From a virus (Duplodnaviria; Caudoviricetes): 64,000 nucleotides of DNA. The position numbers and the translations under genes are program-made. Positions within the stretch are counted from its first letter, which is position 1. Each line of letters starts with the position of its first letter. The stretch lies in the IMG/VR virus record IMGVR_UViG_3300021255_000050, positions 32,001-96,000 of that record; one strand, 5' to 3'. Below the pieces are notes generated by a model that had not been told where the DNA came from, ran no database searches, and saw only the letters and a program-made list of their open reading frames with translations. Positions 5,035-61,316 of the stretch are shown here, one piece after another.

Positions 5035-6186
5035 CGGTGAAGTGGAATGGCTAACAGAAAAGAAGTATTACATGGGCTTGAAGACGAAATTTCGAGGGCA
5101 GAACGGAACGACACAGAATGGAATGATTGCGTTCCGGTTTGGGTGTTTCGTGGTGCGTATGAATTGTTGAAAGAACAAGCACCTGTAGCACCTCAAAAGC
5201 ATTACAACAAAAATGCAGATTTACTTTATGCGTGCGGAAAATGCCACAATGATTTGAAACCGAATAACCGTAACGCAAAGTTCTGCTGGTTTTGCGGACA
5301 AGCGGTGAAGTGGGAATGAAGTGCAGTTACAATAACAGACCGAAAAACATTTTTCCTTGTTCGGTTTGCAATTTCAAAGGAATTGATTGTGAAAATGCAA
5401 AGGGACGAGAACCGATAACATGTATGCATTGCCGAAATTATTGTGGGATAAACAAATTGGTGTGTAGCGAACGGAAAGGATACAACCTCAGACCGTGTGA
5501 AAAATTTATGTGGGATTAAAGGCGGTGAAGTGGGAATGAGCTGGCGTATTCCTTCACGAGAAGAAGCAGAAGAATACACTCTGGCATATCTTGCCGCGCA
5601 GGAAGTTTATTTCGAGGAACACGTTGATGATTGTTGTGAAACGTGTGGTTTCTACGAAAACGGTAAATGCTATTTGGACATCGGCGAGCTTGTCGAAAAA
5701 GACTACAGTTGCAAATTCTATGCAAGGCGGTGAAGTGGGAATGAAGGGAAACGAAGTAACAGCCGAAGACACGGAGAAATGGAAAAAAGATGGAATGATT
5801 CCTGCGACATGTAGATTATGCGGTGAAGTTGTTTTGCATCCAAGCAAATTTTTCAAGAAAGACGAATTGACTAATTACGAATGCGCTAACTGCAAAATGT
5901 ACCTCAGACTGTTAGGAAGACGGTGAAGTAGAATGATTATTGATGTCGTAAAAAGTAAAGGTATCCCTTTTAGGTGCAATACCTGCAATGCCTATTTTGC
6001 ATGGAAACCTGATGGACATGGGGGATGCCGTATACGTTCAAGATACCTACAATGTGAAAAAGTTGAATGTAACTATTATACACCAACAGAAAAGTACTGC
6101 CCCGAATGCGGAGGAAATGATCTTACAGAGGTTCCAGTGATGGTCTATAAAATCATAAGAAAGATTAGGTCGGTGAAGTGGGTATG
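5035..6186 (+). repeat. Six copies of gene-junction motif CGGTGAAGT(G/A)G..ATG
   Basis: Copies start at 5035, 5303, 5523, 5728, 5921 and 6171; each directly precedes the ATG of the next small gene (5047, 5316, 5536, 5741, 5933, 6184). Confidence 0.85.
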
Positions 6187-16447: not shown

Positions 16448-18917
16448 GTGACCTACATGCAGTATGTATATAAAAGAGATGGAAAGAAGCAAGCTTTTGA
16501 CTCTAATAAAATCATAACTGCAATCACAAAATCCATGGAATCGACGGGCGATATAGATGAAGCGCTCGCCAAGCATATAGCTGACAAGATATCAGAGATA
16601 CCAGACAACATGAACGTAGAAGATATCCAAAACCTTGTTGAACAACACCTGATGGATAGCGATAGGAAGGATGTAGCGAAAGCTTACATCATTTACAGAG
16701 CTGAAAGAACCAGGATAAGGCAGAAGAACAGCGCAATCATGAAGCTGTTTGCCGAGAAGCTGACCGCAAAGAACATCGAGAACCAGAATGCAAACGTGGA
16801 TGAAGCGTCTTTCGGCGGCAGAATCGGCGAGGCTGCTGATGCTATGATGACGCAGTATGCCCTTGACAACTGCATGACCGAGAAGTCTCGCAGGAACCAT
16901 GAAGAGAACAGGATTTACATCCACGACAGGAACAGGTATGCCGTTGGTCAGCATAATTGTCTAACTATTCCTTTCGATGATCTGCTGGCCAATGGTTTCA
17001 ATACAAGACAGACGGATGTGCGCCCCGCAAACTCTATCAACACAGCCTTCCAACTGTTGGCTGTTATCTTTCAGCTTCAATCTCTGCAGCAGTTTGGTGG
17101 TGTTGCCGCTGGCCATCTTGACTGGACCATGGTTCCGTATGTGAAGAAGAGTTTTTACAAGCACTTTCAGGATGCGCTGAAGTATATTGGTACTGATGAA
17201 GATAGGGAACTGTATCAGTATGCGAAGCCAACGTGGAGTATTGATGAATACCCTGTCAGTGCTGGCAATAAGCTATTTGATTATTCCATGAACATGACGC
17301 TCAAGGAATTGAAGCAGGCTGTTGAAGCGCTTTACCATAATCTCAATACTCTGCAGTCCCGCAGTGGCAACCAGCTGCCATTCAGCTCCATTAACTACGG
17401 CACATGCACGCTGCCTGAAGGAAGAATGGTAACGAAGGCTCTGCTTGAAGGTCTTATCAATGGCGTTGGTAAGCTGCACAAGACATCCATCTTCCCTTGT
17501 GGAATCTTCCAGTACAAGAAGTTTGTTAATGATAAGCCAGGAACCCCGAACTATGATCTTTTCAGGCTGGCACTGAAGGCTACATCTATGAGACTGTATC
17601 CGAACTACGCGAACTGCGATTGGTCAGGCAATGATGGCTATGATCCGAATGATCCTCGCACGTACTTCGCTACAATGGGATGCCGTACAGCAAATGGCTG
17701 GGATATAAACGGTTTCGGCCAGCTGAAAGACGGACGAGGAAACATCTGTCCTGTAACAATCATTCTGCCGACTGTAGCAATGGAAGCTACCGAGTATGCA
17801 GAAGAACACAATCTGGATAAGGTCGAGTACTTTATGACTTATCTTGCCAACGTAATCGAAGATGCGAAGGATATGCTTATTGAACGGTTTGAATATATCT
17901 GTTCGCAACCGCCTGAGTCTGCTAAGTTTATGTACGAGAACGGCGTTATGGCTGGATATATTCCTGAAGAAGGCACACGGTCGGCACTCAAGCATGGCAC
18001 ACTCGCTATGGGCCAACTCGGTCTTGCTGAAACGCTGCAGATTCTCATCGGTTGCAACCATACAGAGCCGAGAGGTATGGATTTGGCAAAGAGAATCGAG
18101 CAACTGTTCGCCGCCAAGTGCAAAGCATACAAAGAAAACTATAAGCTAAATATAGGCGTTTACTATTCACCATCCGAAAACCTATGTTACACAGCCATGA
18201 ATAAATTCAAAGACAGATATGGTGAGATCAAGAACGTCAGCGACCGTGCATACTTCACAAACAGCATGCATATTCCTGTATGGGAAAAGATCGGAGCATT
18301 CCAGAAGATTGATCTTGAATCTCAGCTTACAGGCTACTCAAGCGCCGGCTGTATTACATATATCGAGCTTGAAAGTTCTGTGAAGAATAACATTGATGCA
18401 ATTGAAACGTATGTCACCTATGCAATGGAGCATGACATTCCGTACTTTGCAATAAACGTTCCGAATGACACATGCCTTGAATGTGGATACACAGATGAAT
18501 TCAACGATAGATGTCCGGTGTGTGGCTCAACAAAAATACAAAGACTGCGGCGTGTTACTGGGTAGAATTATGCCCCTCTTAACAGTGATGTTTAGAGCAA
18601 ACCTCTTTAATTGCTGGAAACTCCTGCAAAGGATAATCAGCAGCCAAGTCTCGTAAGAGAAAGGTTCAACGACCATCCCGCAAGGGAGTAGGATCAAGTG
18701 ATCCGAAATGGGAGGCGGCTCAACAGAGTCGATGATATGGTCTGATCTCTGCAGCAATGTAGAGCTGTCGAAAGACGCATATGTAGTAACGAAACATATG
18801 GAACATAATGATCTCAGCGCCGACTATACCACATCGTTTAATCCAGGAAAACAAGCAGAAGTAAAGGATCGAATAAAGCATACAACATATGCAAGCTTCA
18901 AGGACAATATTTCCTAA
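16448..18917 (+). CDS. nrdD: Anaerobic (class III) ribonucleotide reductase with ATP cone; join(16448..18563,18811..18917)
   Basis: KRDG ATP cone, HNCL, TMGCRT, CxxC..CxxC; splicing restores the glycyl-radical loop RRVTGYLS...FNPGKQAEVKDRIKH. Confidence 0.93.
18564..18810 (+). ncRNA. Group I intron (IA2-like, 247 nt, no ORF) in nrdD
   Basis: P1 exon GGGU/GCCC with U.G at the 5' site; AAUUGCUGGAAA P element; P3 CCUCU/GGAGG; P7 GACCA/UGGUC; terminal G at 18810. Confidence 0.92.
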
Positions 18918-30787: not shown

Positions 30788-32317
30788 TTAGTTAGTGTTT
30801 GGGTAATTTGGATTGGCGATTATAGTCTTGATTAAATCGACAATCTCCATATCGTGTGTATACAAATTCCACTTGCCATCTATGTAAACTACACCTTGTG
30901 CAGAAACGTAGCCATGACTGCTACTATCATAGATTGCCTTATTTTTGCTCTCGTTCGTAGGATAAGCTCCGATGCCAAGTGCAGACGTGTGATTGGTAGG
31001 GTCATATTCCATACGCATAAAAACATTTGCTGATGTAACTTTGTATGTTGTTGAAGTTGATGTTACCCGGTCCCAAGCTGTGAGCTGAATGATGTACGCA
31101 GAGCTATTATCAACTACAACATCCTGTGGATCGTTAAAGTCTCCATACTGTAACATATAATAGTTAGCAGCACTAATAGCACCTGTATGATTCTCGTCAC
31201 ATCCATATACTGTTGGTGACCATTCAGCGATATCTTCTCTTCTATAATGCACCATGCATAGGACAGCATTTAGTTCGTTTCCATTGGCATCTTTAATAGA
31301 TGAAGCTTGTGTCAGCGTTACGTTAAAGCCGATTCTGTTTCCAGAAGCTACGGCAATATTGGGAGCACCTTCAGCACATCTGTATGCCATGAAATAAGCC
31401 TGCGGTTTTGTATAGGCAATGAACGTATGTTGGTCTTCTGCTGCCATGCCATACTGAACTGCAACATTTCTTGAATCGTACACAGTTATAACAAGACTCT
31501 TTACACCAGCTGTCAGGAATGTTATTTCCTCATCGACTGTGCTGGATGTACCAGTAAGATAAGTATCGGGGCCACTAATTACCCACGACACTATATCTGC
31601 ATACTCGGATGAAAGAGTAGCTCGTACATGGATACATGTATGATTTGTCAGGTAATAATCAACGCCGCTATCTGTGAACACGTTCTCTATAGAATACCAT
31701 TTATTGTAACCACTGATAGGGCTGACAGTTGCGCCTGTATCGGTGCTATAACAATTAAGAGTAAAGCTTGCTGTGGCACTGCATTCCTTTGTACTGTTTT
31801 TATATGCATCACACGTAACAGTAACGACAACAGAGTTGGCAGTTTTATTCGCTTTGGCAACGCTCTTAAGCCATGCTGGATTATCAATCTGAAAGGTATA
31901 AGACTCGCCGGTCAGGCCGCTTAGATTCTGTGCATATGGTTCAACGCCTTGTGCAGACCATGTCACGACATATGTATATGAACTCAGGCTTCCTGTCAGT
32001 GTTATAGCGCCACCTTGATTTGCATATACATCAGCAGCAGTCATAGAGATTGAGCCACCATATTCAACTTCAATACTTACATAGCCACCGCCGGAAGTTT
32101 GACCGCCGGCAAACATCGTAATTGAATTAACAGCTCCAATATTCGTCGACAAACCACGAGATACAAGAATCTCACCATTGGTTTTATACATGTGCTGAGA
32201 TTTTGCACCCTCGTTATGATATGTAACGGTTACGCTCGATACATTTGGGAAGTCCCATTTGGCAGTCTGCCATCCTAAACCTACCCAGTGTTTATCCCAT
32301 ACAGTTGATCTTGCCAT
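30788..32317 (-). CDS. Minor tail/baseplate protein
   Basis: 509 aa, beta-rich, directly after Tal. Confidence 0.65.
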   Translation of the reverse strand: MARSTVWDKHWVGLGWQTAKWDFPNVSSVTVTYHNEGAKSQHMYKTNGEILVSRGLSTNIGAVNSITMFAGGQTSGGGYVSIEVEYGGSISMTAADVYANQGGAITLTGSLSSYTYVVTWSAQGVEPYAQNLSGLTGESYTFQIDNPAWLKSVAKANKTANSVVVTVTCDAYKNSTKECSATASFTLNCYSTDTGATVSPISGYNKWYSIENVFTDSGVDYYLTNHTCIHVRATLSSEYADIVSWVISGPDTYLTGTSSTVDEEITFLTAGVKSLVITVYDSRNVAVQYGMAAEDQHTFIAYTKPQAYFMAYRCAEGAPNIAVASGNRIGFNVTLTQASSIKDANGNELNAVLCMVHYRREDIAEWSPTVYGCDENHTGAISAANYYMLQYGDFNDPQDVVVDNSSAYIIQLTAWDRVTSTSTTYKVTSANVFMRMEYDPTNHTSALGIGAYPTNESKNKAIYDSSSHGYVSAQGVVYIDGKWNLYTHDMEIVDLIKTIIANPNYPNTN

Positions 32318-39734: not shown

Positions 39735-42700
39735 TTACCAGCTAAGTCTTGTAGTTGCGATGCCTTGACCTGAGATCTGCTTTACAAATTCCTGGCCGAC
39801 CTTCTCGGCGAGTTCCTGAAGATCGAGGTTGTCATTCAGTTGGTTCGTGCTTACGTGAATGTCGCCGACGGTAACGGTTGGCTTACCTGTCAGCATATCG
39901 GAGCGGAACGCGGTCGAGAACATGGGGACGCTCACGCGAGAGAACGCGCTGATCATCTTGCGCATGTCAGCCATAACGCCGCTGTCGAGCAAGCCACGAA
40001 TCATTTCGCGGTCATCGCTGTTAAGGAAAGCTTCGGGCTTGGACTTAGTGCCGTCAACCCATGCCGGGCCGGTGTAATCTACGAGGCCGCCACTCTTGTA
40101 TTCTGAAACATTGATCTTGTTCTTTAATGCTTGCGCATAACCATGTACCATTCTTACTGTTGTTGCTACATCACCATATCGCTGTGGGTTTGCATTAACA
40201 AAAGACGCGGCCAATTCATCCAGCATAGCTTCGGCAGCCGCTCTTGCTTCTTTTTCCGTTCGGAAACCTTGAAGGGTTCGTCCCTGGAATCCATGCGCCG
40301 TTTCCCATCCAGCTTGATATCTCTTTATTGTTGCAATTTTCTCGTCGCTGTTAGCATTTTTGTTTGCACCACTGTTGGTATTGCCACCGGTGTTGCCGCC
40401 GCCATTACCGCCACCGCTGCCATCGCCGCCGTTGTAATTAGCAAAGTTCTCGTCGCTGTGGAAATATGTAGCCATATCTTGCATTGCTGCAATCCATGCA
40501 TCATATGAACCAGAGCCGGCATCTACATCGAGCCACTGATAAAGAAGTTGCTTACGCTTGTCGTCACTGGCTGTCTGGTATTCATCGGAGGCCATCATAT
40601 AAGCTGCGAAGGATTCTCTGTCACCGAGTATGTTATGCACTTCATCCCAGTAGGTATCAAGAATGTGCAGCATCTGCTTATAGGTATCGGTCCAACTCTG
40701 AACCATTTGTGTTTGTGCATCTTCAATACTGTAAGTGTATTCCTTTACATTTTTCTTCAGCCAATCAAAAAGCTCTGTCTGGTTAAGCTTCATAACTCCA
40801 TTAACCTCTTCGGCAAAGTTATTAGCATCACGCAGCAAGCGCTCCAGATCTTCGTCACCATATGTTACGTACTGATCGTAAGCTTCGATCTCGTCGTCCA
40901 TGCTCTTCTTCTGTGCTTCTACTTGTTCTTCTGCGATCTTCCAGCCGCGCTCTTCCTGCAGATCATCGATCTTCTTCTGCAGCTCCTTCACATCTTTCGT
41001 GCGGGTGCTGTCCATGCTGATAAGAGCAAGCTGCCTCTGGTATTCAGCAAGCTCTTCGGCCTTCTTGGCTTCGTTACTTGCGTCCTTCCTGCGCTGGAGT
41101 TCTTCGTCAATATACTGTTTCTTCTTTTCGAGAGCTTCCTTCTCTTTTTCAACGCCCTTCTTAATGAGCAATATGTTGGCGCAGCAGGTTGTCATCCTTG
41201 CGCCGTTATACAGTGCACTTAAATATACTGCCAGTGGAAACCGCCGGCGGTTTTGCGCAGACCACAAGCAGCTCGCCGAACCATCTCTTTTCCGGGGAGA
41301 CTTTGCGTGGCCGCTTTTGCGCTGGGATAAATAACACCGGTCTCAACACACAAGACCGGTTTCGAATTTATTTCTGCTAGCTTTTGCTTTGTTTCCTCTG
41401 AGTGGTGGAACCCTGTTTTTACTGCACTCATCTTCTTTCGGTACTCCTCTGTATGCATTGCGTTAACGATCTTCTGATGCACCTCTGGTTCCGCAAGTAT
41501 CTGGCGCCGAAGCTCGATGTACTCCGGGTGTTCTTCAATGTATCGGTGCAAGCTTTCGATCCGGCGAGCTGTTACTTCGGGCGAAACCTCGCGACCACCT
41601 TCACCGCCGGCTGTCATGTTGTAGCCGTACTCCGGGTTGTTCGAATGGTAAGCTGCGATGAACCGTTGCTCTTCGCTGTTGAGCGAATCAATGCTGCAGG
41701 GTTCGAGGAGGAAAGCATCGAAAGCTTCGGGACCATACTTATTATATGCGTACTGCAGATGAGTGTTAGGGTGGGAACCGCGCTTTAGTTTACTCATGTG
41801 TTCTTTCAATCTCCTATCTACGTTTTTGGACTGGCCAATATAACACTTATTATTTACCATGTTTCGAATCATGTAGATACCACTTTGAATGCAACCACCT
41901 GCCTTAGGTGGCACTGTATAACCCTCACACTTTCATGCGAGTTCAGACTATATCTTGTGTGCGCAGCAAAGCGCAGCACACCAACCGCTTCGGCAGCAAT
42001 GACGGGGCGCTGCCTACTCCATATAGGATAGTCGTTGAACCTTCTTCTCAGCGGGCTTTGCAAAGTCTTATGAGAAGCTTGGCTGCTGATTGCCCGTGTA
42101 CATCCGCGCCATTTTCGAGCATTCGCGTTTGCTCTCGCGAGCTGCGCTGTAGCTGGCGGGCTTTGGGGTGTTCCAGCAATTCGATTGGTAGGGACCGTAT
42201 AATCCCATTCGTCTTGGTAGCGTTGTTTAATCGCGTCGAGAACCGTCGTTTCCATTTGGACGCGAGCATCGAGCATGTCGCGCTGGATCTGGATGCGGTT
42301 CCGAATTTCCTGATCAACGAGGTCTTCGAGATCAGTATGCGTTTTGAGGATAGCTTGCTCGTTCTGTTTCATCTTCTTGGTGTTCGCGTCAATTGTATTG
42401 TTAGTTTCGTCTAACTGCTCTTCGTACTGCAGCACTTGCTCGTAAAGTTTTTGCCAGTCGTCGGAACCACGCTCTGTCGCGGCAAGCTGCTCGCGAAGCT
42501 TCGTGATCGCGTCGGCGAGGACCACGCTCTTCTCGCGCTGCAGCTCGTTCTCGTACTCGATCATATTGTTGACGTTGCCGAGCTGGCCGAGCTGTTCGTA
42601 CTTGGTTTCCTGGAGTTGGGTCATCTTGATGCGGTGATCGGCAAGAGTAATTTTGTTCTTGAGGTTTTGGAGAAGCTTGTCGGCTGCAGATTTACCACCG

Positions 42701-56995: not shown

Positions 56996-57118
56996 AATAA
57001 CACGCTCCTTTATGCGGTAGTGCTGCGACAGCAGTGATGACAATAGCGTAGCCAGAAACTGTCGTCATCGCTGCCGTCGCAAATAAGGCCGGCAGTGCGT
57101 ACCACCGGCCTTTTGCTG

Positions 57119-57376
57119 TTAGTGAAAATCGCGCTCGCCGTTTTCGCTGCGGCCAGTTACGCGCTGGTAAAGCTCGCCATGCTTCTTGTCAGGATCGGAA
57201 TCGCTGACGATAGGGAAAGGGTTCGCCTGTTCGAGAGTCATCAGCTGCACAGCGCAAGCGCCAATGCGGCCAAGCTCCCCGCTGCGGTCAATGCCGAGCT
57301 TATAGTTACGGTAATGTATCTGCATTTCGTTATACAGATCAAATGCTGTCTTCATAGTCAACACCTCGTTAATCAT
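57119..57376 (-). CDS. Hypothetical protein
   Basis: MINEVLTMK..., overlaps the stop of the chaperone extension. Confidence 0.5.
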   Translation of the reverse strand: MINEVLTMKTAFDLYNEMQIHYRNYKLGIDRSGELGRIGACAVQLMTLEQANPFPIVSDSDPDKKHGELYQRVTGRSENGERDFH

Positions 57377-58186
57377 TTGCCCATTCCATCCCCTGCATAT
57401 CCTTTTCTGCTGTAATAGGAACGTTAGCGAAAAGCGCAAGGAGACCGCTGGCAACATTTGCGGAATCACCACGGAGGGGGTTCGCCTGCTCGATAATCTT
57501 GCCGGACTCTTTTGCAAAAGCATTGCCGGCATAATTAACAGCGGCTTCGTAATTCAAGCGCTTGCCTAGCGCTTTAAGGACTGCTTTGAAGAACGGGATA
57601 CTCATGTTATTGATCTTATCCTCGTTAACTTCACCTAAATGAACAGCGACAGCAGCAACAGCTTCATCAAGAGTTAGCCCATCGTCGCCGCTGTCGCCAT
57701 CCGGTTTTTTACTTGTTCCTCCATCTCGTCAATCTTGTTCAAGCGGCAGAAGATGTCGAGCAAGTTGTAAATATCTGCAGAGGTCATGTTGTCGAAGTGC
57801 TTCTTCGTAAAGGCTGCATCATCAACAACACAGGTTACCCAGTCCATGAGGCACTTTGTAGGCGTACGCTTTTCGTCAAAGTAATCATCAGGAAGCTGGA
57901 AGATGTAGGGAAGCGGCATGCTTTTCAGCACCCTGTAAAAACCAGCAACACCATTACGCTGGTAGAACATGCGCGTTGCTTTTATCTCTATAGTAACGCC
58001 GTCACATGTGAACATATTTTGCATGTTCTCAGCCGGCGGGATTGGCTTGCTGGATATTTCTTCTGAAGGCTGCGGTTCCGAAATCACTTCTTCTTTCGGG
58101 AGATCGCTGGCTTCAATATCTTCATCAGGCAGTGTACCGGGGTTCGGCACCTTTTCTGTGGGAAGCTTCTTCGGCATAATCATCAT
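57369..58186 (-). CDS. Tail assembly chaperone (57674-58186) and -1 frameshift extension to 57369 (gpG/gpGT-like)
   Basis: Slippery A AAA AAC at 57710-57704; the -1 frame is open (PDGDSGDDGLTLDEAVAA...MSIPFFK...) to the stop at 57369. Confidence 0.85.
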
Positions 58187-58196
58187 CTCTTCTTTT

Positions 58197-58229
58197 TAAA
58201 AAAGGGCTGCCAGTGTTAGTAGCAGCCCT
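58197..58229 (-). terminator. Terminator after the second terminal exon of the major tail gene
   Basis: AGGGCTGCTA-CTAACAC-TGGCAGCCCT-TTTT. Confidence 0.75.
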
Positions 58230-58234
58230 ATAAG

Positions 58235-58389
58235 TTAGCTTGAATATTTGTCCGTATCGTAGTTGGACTCGTCGTACTTGGATTGCTGTCCGTACCCCTT
58301 GCTTACAATGCCAACCTGCCAAGCGATGTTGTCATCGCCGCCGGGGTCCATTGTAGACAGGGTGAGCGGAAATGTAGCTGCTGATTTGT
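58235..58389 (-). CDS. Major tail protein terminal exon B (distal)
   Basis: (T)AC-AAA... = YKSAATFPLTLSTMDPGGDDNIAWQVGIVSKGYGQQSKYDESNYDTDKYSS*; preceded by G58390. Confidence 0.8.
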
Positions 58390-58429
58390 CATTTACATTC
58401 AGCATAGATCGCTACACTATGCTCGCGCT
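58390..58429 (-). ncRNA. Duplicated group I intron 3' end (P9-type hairpin + terminal G)
   Basis: AGCGCG-AGCAUAG-UGUAGCGAU-CUAUGCU-GAAUGUAAAUG, homologous to the 3' ends of both upstream introns. Confidence 0.8.
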
Positions 58430-58542
58430 TTAGGACGACTTCTTCTTGGGATTGTCGATGATGCCAACCTGCCATGCAATAGCATCGTCATCGCCACGGT
58501 CCATCGTGGAGAGAGTCAGCGGGAAGGTAGCAGCAGACTTAT
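58430..58542 (-). CDS. Major tail protein terminal exon A (proximal)
   Basis: (T)AT-AAG... = YKSAATFPLTLSTMDRGDDDAIAWQVGIIDNPKKKSS*; preceded by G58543. Confidence 0.85.
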
Positions 58543-58804
58543 CATATGTATTCACCGCAGTTCGCTGGGCTGCAGTCGCGCCTTAAGCACTGCTCTATGT
58601 CGCCATAGAGATTAGACCATATCTTCATCTCAAGTTGAGAGGCTACCGTTTCGACCACCAATCGCTTGTGGCCTACTCCCATATGGGATGGTCGTTAGAG
58701 TCTATGCGTATAACGCACTTGCTACGGGATTGTCTCGTAGAGAGTTTCCCCGTTTAGGTAGCTTTTGCATGCAGCTCACGCTGCAAGGAACCTATTGTTT
58801 GCTA
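58543..58804 (-). ncRNA. Group I intron 2 of major tail gene (262 nt; 415 nt if the distal 3' site is used)
   Basis: P1 exon GAGCU/GGUUC (U.G); AAACGGGGAAAC; P3 GCUACC/GGUAGC; P7 GACCA/UGGUC; P7.1/P7.2 hairpins (IA2-like). Confidence 0.9.
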
Positions 58805-58816
58805 AGCTCGTGTCAA
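58805..58816 (-). CDS. 12-nt microexon of major tail gene (TTGACACGAGCT)
   Basis: Flanked by intron 1 terminal G and intron 2 P1; its first 6 nt pair perfectly with the intron 1 guide UGUCAA (P10); gives PG-FDTSY-KSAAT. Confidence 0.88.
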
Positions 58817-59094
58817 CAGTGTGTGTTCAGCATGGTTCGCAACACCATGCCCGCTTTTCAGCTGCTGCATATCACTATGCAGATCGGACTATATCTTCAT
58901 CCATTTTCATGGAGCTTCCCATTTCGAACGCCATATGCTTGCGTCCTACGCCGTAAGGCTAGTCTCTAGGCTTTTTGCATACTCTTTTCAGGTATGCATT
59001 TAGCACGGTAGGTTGTCTTACGCTGCCGTAAGAGTTTCCCCGTTTAAGGAAGTGTCAGTATGCATTGCTGCATAAAGGACCTTGACAAATGTAA
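58817..59094 (-). ncRNA. Group I intron 1 of major tail gene (278 nt)
   Basis: P1 exon GGCU/GGUC (U.G); P10 UGUCAA/UUGACA; P3 CUUCC/GGAAG; P7 GACUA/UAGUC; terminal G 58817. Confidence 0.92.
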
Positions 59095-59770
59095 AGCCAG
59101 GAAGAGTGGTCACGCGGGTCTTGAAGATACGAACCACAGCATACTTGATGATGCCGCTTTCTTCGCACTTCTTACCGTCGTTGTAGATAGGCCACTTAAG
59201 GATAACTTCGCCGCAAGCCACGTCCCTGTTGTTGATGTTAACAACATTGGCAGTGGAATCTGCAGTCTCGTAGAAGATCTCCATCTCGTCGGTTTCATCA
59301 TCAGAGAACAGGACCGTCTTTGCTTCGGTATCAACATAGTAATAACCGGACGCAACAGGAGTGCCAGAAGCCTGTTCCTTCAGACCATTGATATACACGG
59401 TGCCAGCGGCCGGCTTATAGGTCAGGGTAACCTTGTGGGTAGTGGCATCGGGAGTAAGAGACTCGCTGACAGGAACCAGGAAATTGGGATCGTTCACGAA
59501 ATCAGCAGCATTCGCGGCAGCAAAGATTTCGGGCATGAAATCGCCCAGAGTGATCTGGATGTCCATGGTGGACTGGCCAGGGATGTTAGCAGAAGCATAA
59601 GCGGACCACCCAGAGCGAACCTCAATGAAGTCCACCTGAGGATTCAGGGAGCACTGCGTAACATGCTTGCTTGTAAAGACTTTCTTGTCGCCACCGCGCC
59701 TAAAGTAGAACTGCGGAACGTCGACAATGTAGCCGCCAAACTGTGGTACATATTTGGTTGCCATAAGCAT
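59095..59770 (-). CDS. Major tail (tube) protein exon 1
   Basis: Between the tail-completion gene and the frameshifting chaperone; beta-rich, high-expression codon bias; ends ...RVTTLPG. Confidence 0.85.
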
Positions 59771-59824
59771 TCACGTTCTTTCAATTGTATTTATGATAGC
59801 TCGTCCCTCACACGAGTTACATAC

Positions 59825-60319
59825 TTAATAAACTCTCGTGAAAGTCATCGTGAGGCAGTGGCGTTCGTACCCTATGGTCCGTGTGCCAAGCACCGTTTCA
59901 TGCGGATCACGAAACTTAAACACACCGATGTACCCGTAGTTCTCATCGCGCGGCTTAATGTAAAGCAGCTCAAGGAACCTGCGAGCAATACGCTGTGTTC
60001 GTGCGACAAGGCGGTCCTTGCCAACAGTGTGCATCTTCTCAGTCGGACAATAGATGTCGAGGCTGAGTGTCATGTTATGAGCATTTGGGATGTCTGTGCT
60101 GTCAGCTGGATAAAAACCATAGACGACGCGAATGTCCTCGTTGGTGAGAAGCTCGGACGTGGTCTTGCCAGCCTGCACAAAGTAGCGGTTCACAAATTCA
60201 AGGATGCTGGTTTTCGGGGCAACCCCCATCAGCTCCTTCAGCTCTGTATCGGGAAAGATGACGTCACGAATAATGTCGAGCCAGTCATCGTCCCAGGCGG
60301 TGTACAGCATTCTCACCAC
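59825..60319 (-). CDS. Putative tail terminator/completion protein
   Basis: Synteny immediately upstream of the major tail gene. Confidence 0.55.
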   Translation of the reverse strand: MVRMLYTAWDDDWLDIIRDVIFPDTELKELMGVAPKTSILEFVNRYFVQAGKTTSELLTNEDIRVVYGFYPADSTDIPNAHNMTLSLDIYCPTEKMHTVGKDRLVARTQRIARRFLELLYIKPRDENYGYIGVFKFRDPHETVLGTRTIGYERHCLTMTFTRVY

Positions 60320-60358
60320 CTCGCTTTCATTTGAGTAGTAATTTCGTAACTTAAACGG

Positions 60359-60592
60359 TTAAGCATTCATACCGATGCGGCGCATCGCATTCTGCCAATC
60401 GTATTCTTGGAACTCTTTCTTGCGGTCTTCGTCAGCCCCTTCGAGGTTCAGCTGAACTTCATCCTTGGTCACGCTTTTAATCGAGACCTTGATCGGTTCG
60501 CCCTCGATACCGGATTCATAGGTTGCTGCAGCAGCAAGAGCTGTGAATCTTTTTTGGAGCATGTCAACGACAAACTCATCTACGTTAATCAT
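60359..60592 (-). CDS. Neck-region hypothetical protein
   Basis: SD GGAGG; synteny. Confidence 0.55.
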   Translation of the reverse strand: MINVDEFVVDMLQKRFTALAAAATYESGIEGEPIKVSIKSVTKDEVQLNLEGADEDRKKEFQEYDWQNAMRRIGMNA

Positions 60593-61316
60593 AACTGAAC
60601 CCTCCAGCCGTATGCCGACACCGCAGCGTCAGGCAACCGCGCTCATCATCCAGCGCGAGACCAACGCGGGAAACATCAACGATCTCGTACGTATCATCGC
60701 CCCACTGGAATGTATCGTCCACGCGGATAAGCTTCGTCTGGTCGTTGTACTGCACACTAAGGATCGTGTAAGCATTCGCGGTAATACCGGGAGTGCCGCT
60801 GGCTGCAGAAAACTCAGGGCGGCCATCATAGCGGTATGCGTTACAAGGAATCGCATCCACGATCTTGGTCCAGCCCTTCTCCTCGATAACGTAGCCCCGC
60901 TCGTCCACAACATCGTCCATGTATCGGCTGATGCTGAGATAGAAGTTGCAGCGCAAAGCACGGCTTGGAGCATTGTTGGATTCGAGGTGAACTTCCCAGT
61001 CGAGAAGGTAAGGCTGCTGGTTATTGCTGGCGATAATCATGTCGCCCTTATGGATACCAGAAGACAGGCTCGCGCGGAAGTTCATATTGGAGTCCGTGTT
61101 TTCATAACGAGACTTTGTCGCATCAGGGTAGAGTTCGCCCCTGATGATCGTAGGTTCGTAACCATCTTCGAACTGAGCGTACCAGTCGTGCAGCAGAGTG
61201 AAGTCCATGACTTGATTAGGAAGCTGACCATCCAAAAAATTGTCGAAGTCGGATTCCAAAGTCGGAGGCCGGTAAAATCTAAACTGTGAAGGCCTTTTAA
61301 CATAAGGTCGGCTCAT
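60585..61316 (-). CDS. Putative head-closure protein
   Basis: Synteny; beta-rich with YEIVDV-like C-terminal barrel. Confidence 0.55.
   Translation of the reverse strand: MSRPYVKRPSQFRFYRPPTLESDFDNFLDGQLPNQVMDFTLLHDWYAQFEDGYEPTIIRGELYPDATKSRYENTDSNMNFRASLSSGIHKGDMIIASNNQQPYLLDWEVHLESNNAPSRALRCNFYLSISRYMDDVVDERGYVIEEKGWTKIVDAIPCNAYRYDGRPEFSAASGTPGITANAYTILSVQYNDQTKLIRVDDTFQWGDDTYEIVDVSRVGLALDDERGCLTLRCRHTAGGFSYD

Follow-up and report, generated by a model that had tools for sequence, protein, structure and literature searches.

Alternative splicing that gives rise to protein isoforms is regarded as essentially eukaryotic, and to our knowledge exon skipping is the only alternative splicing seen so far in phages. 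In exon 6 of Drosophila Dscam, selector sequences before the mutually exclusive exons compete for one docking site. The surface-layer protein genes of Clostridium tetani undergo alternative splicing by a group II intron, and the siphophage SPP1 makes two tail-tube forms (gp17.1 and gp17.1*) by programmed frameshifting. Exon skipping by group I introns has been described in the tail tube gene orf142 of Staphylococcus phage Twort, which has three introns, and in the DNA polymerase gene of Bacillus phage SIOphi (PMC3073962, PMC11878797). In the c-di-GMP (cyclic di-GMP) allosteric group I ribozyme of Clostridioides difficile, as summarised in PMC3073962, splice-site choice is set by alternative RNA pairings. 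Here we analysed a tail tube gene on the minus strand of a 64,000-nucleotide (nt) stretch of phage DNA (the window; positions 32,001 to 96,000 of IMG/VR record IMGVR_UViG_3300021255_000050, a complete virus record of 115,379 bp with terminal repeats), in which a single group I ribozyme is followed by two alternative terminal exons, A and B, the second of them lying behind a 40-nt copy of an intron 3' end.

On sequence evidence from the window and its relatives, alternative 3' splice-site choice in this gene probably yields isoforms of 266 and 280 amino acids (aa), a reading to which we assign a probability of roughly 70%. One group I ribozyme, that of intron 2, would act at both 3' splice sites. 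Once its first splicing step is complete, the 5' exon, which ends in ...GAGCU, would be ligated either at G58543 to exon A or at G58390 to exon B, and the choice of exon B would remove exon A and the spacer within a 415-nt intron. Each site has its own copy of the 3' terminal domain, made up of the 3' half of a short helix, a hairpin of 7 bp whose loop is of the AGCGA type, GAA, 6-8 nt and UG. The gene runs in the order exon 1, group I intron 1, 12-nt micro-exon, group I intron 2, exon A, 40-nt spacer, exon B and terminator, with the following features in window coordinates (a slash marks a splice junction):

59095-59770, minus strand: first exon of the tube gene, 225 complete codons and 1 nt, 3' end GGC T, taken from the list of open reading frames (ORFs)
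58817-59094, minus strand: group I intron 1, 278 nt, U.G at GGCU/, 3' tail hairpin-GAACACACACUG/, Rfam 68.1 bits
58805-58816, minus strand: micro-exon TTGACACGAGCT, 12 nt, encoding (F)DTS, phase 1 at both ends
58543-58804, minus strand: group I intron 2 in its proximal form, 262 nt, single core, P1 GAGCU:GGUUC, omega-G at G58543, Rfam 53.1 bits
58581-58590, minus strand: putative docking strand GUGCUUAAGG, just 3' of P9, able to form a 4-bp stem with GCGC (58580-58577) or a 9/10 helix with the distal selector
58554-58576, minus strand: proximal pre-splice-site hairpin, 7 bp, loop CCCAGCGAA, from the alignment and pair counts
58430-58542, minus strand: terminal exon A, (Y)KSAATFPLTLSTMDRGDDDAIAWQVGIIDNPKKKSS and stop, for the predicted 266-aa isoform
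58434-58425, minus strand: putative distal selector CCUAAAGCGC, overlapping the exon A stop codon
58390-58429, minus strand: orphan 3' splice cassette (the spacer), omega-G at 58390 after GAAUGUAAAUG
58401-58423, minus strand: distal cassette hairpin, 7 bp, loop UGUAGCGAU
58235-58389, minus strand: terminal exon B, (Y)KSAATFPLTLSTMDPGGDDNIAWQVGIVSKGYGQQSKYDESNYDTDKYSS and stop, for the predicted 280-aa isoform
58197-58229, minus strand: intrinsic terminator after exon B, 10-bp stem and T run, the only terminator-like site of the gene on this strand

Comparison with the systems named above shows both kinship and departure. As in Twort and SIOphi, phage self-splicing group I introns would give more than one spliced mRNA, and the Twort gene is likewise a tail tube gene. 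There, however, an internal exon between two complete ribozymes is skipped, whereas here two terminal exons follow one ribozyme, the second with only a 40-nt copy of the 3' domain and no core before it, and the duplicated exons encode the same structural segment and would hence be mutually exclusive. Complete ribozymes on both sides are found for the micro-exon and not for exon A, which is followed by 40 nt without a core. The two introns around the micro-exon are both phase 1, so a skip of the Twort kind would keep the frame there; both lack ORFs, each interrupts its codon after the first base, and joining the intron 1 5' site to an intron 2 3' site would delete FDTS. The C. difficile ribozyme, as far as that summary goes, depends on a riboswitch aptamer and regulates where translation of a single product starts or whether it does, whereas the window gene would give two isoforms; no riboswitch family matched in 57000-61000 at E ≤ 1. 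Like SPP1, the phage would obtain from a single siphophage gene both a short tube subunit and one with a C-terminal extension, but the SPP1 mechanism is ribosomal and the window has no overlapping frame: a stop, 40 nt and a repeated coding segment separate the two ends, the exon A stop is followed by in-frame stops, and exon B opens with a repeat of the 28 codons that start exon A. In C. tetani, too, a bacterial self-splicing intron joins alternative exons and diversifies a surface or structural protein, but the intron is of group II, the alternative exons are 5' exons and there are no duplicated 3' splice cassettes. The likeness to Dscam is one of analogy, in that one docking RNA segment would pair with one of several selectors; Dscam splicing is spliceosomal and eukaryotic, whereas in the window the pairing, inferred from conservation and folding, would rebuild the ribozyme's own helix. 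The preliminary description of this region, made from its sequence alone, knew of no described case of the kind. That claim has to be narrowed, since group I exon skipping and ligand-controlled splice-site choice are known, but a full-text literature search found no report of a group I intron in which copies of the 3' splice cassette precede terminal exons that exclude one another.

The exon-intron map rests on several features. Two Rfam RF00028 matches (gathering score 50 bits), both full-length, lie on the minus strand at 59104-58865 (68.1 bits) and 58838-58593 (53.1 bits), that is, one core per insertion site and none between exons A and B; the catalytic core of intron 2 (P3-P9) thus stands above the family threshold (53.1 vs 50 bits). 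By inspection, GAGCU/U at the 5' splice site of intron 2 pairs with AGGUUC with a U.G at the junction, and P1 of intron 1 is GGCU:GGUC with a U.G pair at the cut. G58543 directly precedes exon A and G58390 directly precedes exon B. Removal of the introns gives the continuous reading ...LPGFDTS/YKSAATFPLTLSTMD, to be set against ...LPGFDTSYKSPATFPLTLSTMD...GIIDNVKN in P0005, an intronless metagenomic homologue of 264 aa with which the exon junctions LPGF/DTS/YKS agree; homologues of the micro-exon region read GFDTS without a break. Because P0005 matches the join without introns, both junctions are confirmed and exon A is the ancestral type of end, and exon A is orthologous to the C-termini of intronless relatives. 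The implied exon junctions are ACGAGCT/ATAAGTCT for A and ACGAGCT/ACAAATCA for B.

The coordinates of the preliminary description proved exact to the base (A 58542-58430, spacer 58429-58390, B 58389-58235). Its product lengths of about 265 and 279 aa need a slight correction, as counting from the ATG at 59770 gives 266 aa (A, with a short basic end) and 280 aa (B, with an acidic, Tyr-rich tail). A split Tyr codon is completed in the same phase by either exon (T/AT in A, T/AC in B); their first 15 residues are the same although 11 of these codons differ synonymously, the first 28 residues agree at 25 positions, and the terminator stands only after exon B, all as it had stated. The terminator-like site was mapped to 58229-58203. 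At the DNA level, the two exons form a direct repeat of about 85 nt whose copies are 73% identical.

The spacer between the exons is an orphan intron 3' terminal domain (strand, hairpin, GAA and omega-G) without the ribozyme core. In this intron class, the last ~48 nt follow one plan, namely AAGCRCG, then a hairpin of 7 bp that carries an ...AGCGA... loop, GAA, 6-8 nt and UG/, and the spacer before exon B holds every element of this plan and no other part of a ribozyme. The earlier suggestion that the spacer copies a group I 3' end was borne out by 25 of 40 positions matching the proximal intron end and by a covariance model. This model (R1) was built from ten 3' ends of the intron class, its seed including the cassettes of the window, L002, L004 and L011, and was searched on both strands of the window plus 22 loci from relatives (146 kb). 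The window spacer, itself a seed member, was the top match (64.5 bits, E 7e-15), and all matches in the 146 kb were either true intron 3' ends or orphan copies before alternative exons; those outside the seed (L057, L052, L050, L041, L033 and L045) were all at intron 3' ends. The 3' domain of intron 1, another seed sequence, was matched at 58857-58809. Across the alignment of ten cassettes, pairing of the hairpin holds in 70 of 70 cells, compared with 19-44% in slid controls, and all seven hairpin pairs show compensatory double changes; between the orphan cassettes of the window and L011 alone, three pairs are altered on both sides. Orthologues of the window's distal cassette occur in L004, L011 and L002. 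The distal loops of the window, L004 and L011 have a derived UGUAGCG in common, and the proximal loops read YCYAGCGAA; the shared derived loop places the duplication before the split of these lineages.

Coding constraint on the exons is seen between lineages. B-type exons have a proportion of nonsynonymous differences (pN) of 0.36-0.45 against a proportion of synonymous differences (pS) of 0.65-0.94, which is effectively saturated, and A-type exons have an omega (nonsynonymous to synonymous ratio) of 0.17-0.42. The B exons are open in all lineages, and their tails (KGYGQQSKYDESNYDTDKY, KGYGQFPRFDAAHFDSSSY, RYYNQSPVYGVAVFDRDKY and TDYNQGPASIASYYDSSIY) have the motif Y[GN]Q...[YF]D...Y in common; B-type orthologues with this motif are those of L004, L011, L002 and L009. 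The preliminary description had argued for purifying selection from the synonymous divergence of A and B within one genome (pS 0.90, pN 0.18), which is no proof; it is the cross-lineage comparison, and not the within-genome one, that shows exon B to be kept as coding sequence. The pS of 0.90 is at or above saturation and fits selection against repeat recombination, an excess that is not significant on 25 sites. Every alternative exon comes directly after UG, starts with AC or AU and completes the same split Tyr codon. No downstream exon in any lineage is preceded by a Shine-Dalgarno (SD)-like sequence, as had been noted for the window, and an in-frame start after the preceding stop is missing in five of the seven downstream exons. 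Judged from these sequences, splicing to the common 5' exon is the sole conserved route by which the downstream exons would be expressed.

We then compared the layout across relatives. Seven close proteins and 200 members of the family came out of the searches, and the DNA of relatives was examined where obtainable. Four lineages, including the window, carry the DTS/Y intron (that is, intron 2) together with several terminal exons, the three others being diverged and metagenomic, with tube proteins 54-70% identical to that of the window:

Window and L013: terminal exons A and B
L004: terminal exons A and B
L011: terminal exons A and B
L002/L003 and L009: terminal exons A and B and a third, A-like exon with an acidic tail

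Introns orthologous to intron 2 at the same codon were found in L002, L004, L009 and L013, and L010 has the intron of L004 on a contig that ends before the downstream exons. All but one of the downstream exons of the four lineages lie behind an orphan cassette, and a terminator follows the last exon in every complete locus (terminator-like hairpins in L002 and L004, as in the window). The two points of the preliminary description that could be judged from relatives, a conserved double-exon layout and a non-degenerate exon B, thus stood: two or three exons are kept at this protein distance, and the B exons are intact, homologous and with pN well below saturated pS. The third concern it had raised, an assembly chimera of two strains, was rejected because the ENA assembly L013 reproduces the window arrangement base for base, so that the layout recurs in independent assemblies. 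Window 59118-57109 is 100% identical to L013:704-2713 (ENA ERZ28612952), a stretch that runs from shortly ahead of the 5' splice site of intron 1 to 2 kb downstream, and tube exon 1 upstream of intron 1 is only 50-80% identical; either the sequence is mosaic with an abrupt boundary at the intron, or the metagenome scaffold is chimeric.

Outside these lineages the layout was absent. Loci without the DTS/Y intron have a single terminal exon (L001, L005-L008, L012, L033 and L050, read directly), and in a hidden Markov model (HMM) scan each tube gene of the remaining IMG/VR loci had one C-terminal module. A wider-family IMG/VR scan of 42 loci gave none with both a DTS/Y intron and multiple exons, and showed other intron sites and single ends; L056, L059 and L060 were too short to reach downstream exons. 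On these sequences, the DTS/Y intron is necessary but not sufficient for the layout. Collectively, the comparisons indicate a selected modular design, in which one ribozyme would be combined with duplicated 3' splice cassettes before alternative exons.

How the ribozyme would choose between the two exons is suggested by a short strand next to P9. The docking strand GUGCUUAAGG would select the site either by local pairing with the proximal cassette (4 bp) or by distant pairing with the distal cassette (6-9 bp). In the lineages this strand has the form GUGCUUA(A/G/C)... after P9 and makes only a 4-bp stem with the proximal GCRC, whereas the orphan cassettes retain and lengthen the 3' strand (CCUAAAGCGC, CUAAGCAC and UUGAGCAC). 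In three of the four lineages, the stop codon that closes the preceding exon falls within the extended selector. Docking and selector strands can form 9/10, 7, 6 and 8 base pairs in the four lineages, and minimum free energy folds from P9 to the distal splice site contain the long-range helix in all four. Among 337-504 windows, the selector was the best duplex partner of the docking strand in 4/4 lineages (−10 to −12 kcal/mol vs −7 to −9.6 for the runner-up). Presumably, the proximal pairing forms first during transcription (a kinetic preference) and the distal pairing is thermodynamically favoured, in which case the phage would make a mixture of both isoforms, much as frameshifting lets other siphophages do. 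We give about even odds to the fuller scheme, in which a docking strand and two to three selectors, each heading a portable cassette-exon unit, would bring about mutually exclusive terminal-exon selection with defined isoform ratios, having evolved by tandem duplication.

Several observations weigh against this scheme or against alternative splicing as a whole. The docking and selector strands are nearly invariant, which gives conservation and no covariation, and duplication of a near-palindromic P9.1 could by itself have produced their complementarity. With either exon, the window offers little P10 pairing (2 bp; by inspection, 3-5 bp in L002, L011 and L004), and P10 was rejected as the exon discriminator as all exons begin ACAAR or AUAAG. 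In the close pair L002/L009, exons 1-2 differ by five nonsynonymous and no synonymous changes, although these numbers are tiny. No cassette can be recognised before the middle, B-type exon of L002/L009, and the B frame of L011, which lacks a stop near the homologous end, does not fit either. Only four independent lineages are at hand, and L057, a distant member, has an intron at the same codon yet a single terminal exon, so the layout is a trait of one clade. In the middle exon (L002:4076-4266, L009:1252-1442), the 27 nt before it form a different hairpin, without the AGCGA-loop cassette or a selector. In L011:1247-1520, the B-type frame continues for ~90 codons into an AT-rich stretch, and an overlapping ORF (1431-1544) encodes an acidic Tyr/Asp-rich peptide, which may reflect a contig error or a longer tail.

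The downstream exon could instead be a relic of recombination or duplication, with only the proximal site in use and exon B and its cassette, left by unequal crossover or allele exchange, carried as 3' untranslated region (UTR). The region is indeed a recombination hot spot, as the switch of L013 from 50-80% identity to 100% at the intron 1 5' splice site illustrates, and the synonymous divergence of A and B could predate their joining, having arisen in separate genomes. We consider a relic improbable, however, as the A and B layout with orthologous B tails and distal cassettes (loop UGUAGCG) extends over lineages 54-70% identical, no lineage has a B exon that is interrupted, pN stays far under a saturated pS, and the orphan hairpin stays paired through compensatory changes where a neutral relic should decay.

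Just as improbable is a purely regulatory role, in which the distal cassette would compete for the ribozyme as a decoy, tuning or timing exon A splicing, or would stabilise the 3' UTR, with exon B as a by-product. The docking strand can pair with either cassette, and RNA conservation confined to the cassette would fit such a regulatory RNA; what it leaves unexplained is the protein conservation of a 50-codon exon B with a common tail motif, and the exact split-codon phase kept in all lineages. We hold a silent cassette store to be very unlikely. In that case the exons would be unexpressed donors for DNA gene conversion or deletion that swap the tube C-terminus in the manner of pilS/pilE, for which direct repeats of about 85 nt at 73% identity and a tube C-terminus highly variable across the family would be suited, but the maximally diverged synonymous sites of A and B (pS 0.90) suppress homologous recombination, covariation of RNA structure in the cassette would be needless, and no assembly has a deleted or swapped variant. 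Least likely of all, and rejected, are translational recoding from A into B (readthrough, frameshift or hop), which would have to cross a 40-nt spacer that changes the frame and contains an in-frame stop after the end of exon A and would duplicate two beta-strands, and independent translation of exon B from the in-frame ATG 16 nt before it in the window (a 56-aa ORF, 58405-58235), which has no SD-like sequence, no in-frame start in L004, L002 or L009, and matched only itself in a search.

The gene encodes a tail tube protein of the SPbeta/SPR type (YomU). The Pfam family PF27173 (YomU_Tube) is precomputed for the window product and its relatives, although our own Pfam scan of exon 1 and neighbouring ORFs gave no match; the PHROG assignment of the exon 1 product is virion structural protein, and a phmmer search of PDB gave a distant match of the product to the SPR tail tube protein (E 4e-4). 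An AlphaFold2 model of the homologue P0005 (pLDDT, predicted local distance difference test, 93) had as its top Foldseek matches the SPR tube structures 8xkn and 8ygm (template modelling score 0.68-0.78), which shows the tube fold; the match of this fold to the SPR tube protein scores 0.72-0.78. In the loci of relatives, the gene order is YonB, YomX_C, tube gene, small ORFs and a giant PhageMin_Tail tape measure (4,500-5,100 aa), which places the tube gene in the tail module between the head-tail connector genes and the tape measure. The alternative-exon segment corresponds in the P0005 model to the last two beta-strands (236-243 and 254-260) and the C-terminal tail, and on this model exons A and B both re-encode the last two beta-strands of the tube fold. 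In the cryo-electron microscopy structure of the SPR tube, residues 242-264 are disordered (PMC11850899). The position of the long tail corresponds to this disordered C-terminal segment. The window protein thus has its fold, its gene neighbourhood and the position of its variable tails (the disordered C-terminal ~23 residues) in common with the SPbeta/SPR tube protein (YomU; PDB 8k98, 8xkn and 8ygm), but is only ~15% identical to that of SPR in sequence, and neither an intron nor an alternative end is reported for the SPR or SPbeta gene. A GTDB genome scan found no relatives, and among known phage records the gene was unmatched, only its intron cores having matches, in Bacillus and T4-like introns.

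If alternative 3' splice-site choice is true, siphophages would have a route to two tube subunits besides frameshifting, and the gene would offer a simple natural system for the study of 3' splice-site selection by a group I ribozyme and a template for engineered self-splicing switches. By analogy, the fuller scheme with a docking strand and selectors would be a self-splicing counterpart of Dscam-type alternative splicing by competing helices. For annotation, the layout matters as gene callers truncate such tube genes or overlook the alternative ends.

The YomU-type tube gene is an intron hot spot across the family (P0009-P0158; L033, L041, L045, L050 and L052). Judged by read-through tails and split HMM matches, insertion sites lie after KWP(V), PG, DTS and YKTANT, inside the last module (around AM/D) and near residue 45-64, and some of the introns carry GIY-YIG ORFs. 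The IMG/VR phages L019 (1806 and 2661) and L037 (1364 and 2640) have paired strong matches to the C-terminal module, 850-1270 nt apart, and this sequence pattern suggests two tandem tube paralogues, which would be a DNA-level alternative to two isoforms. The complete record has five group I intron matches, four of which are above the family cut-off. One match, at window 18554-18764 (plus strand; site 18554-18814), has the same type of 3' domain, with an R1 match at 18772-18814; a further match in the same phage lies at window 41924-42281 (minus strand), and the group I match G000:C1:18864-19109 scores 43.7 bits, under the family cut-off of 50. An MIR3627 match at 57015-57091 was far below its family threshold and was taken as chance. 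In the related phage L001, three transfer RNA genes flank the tail module (L001:183-328 and 5559-5633).

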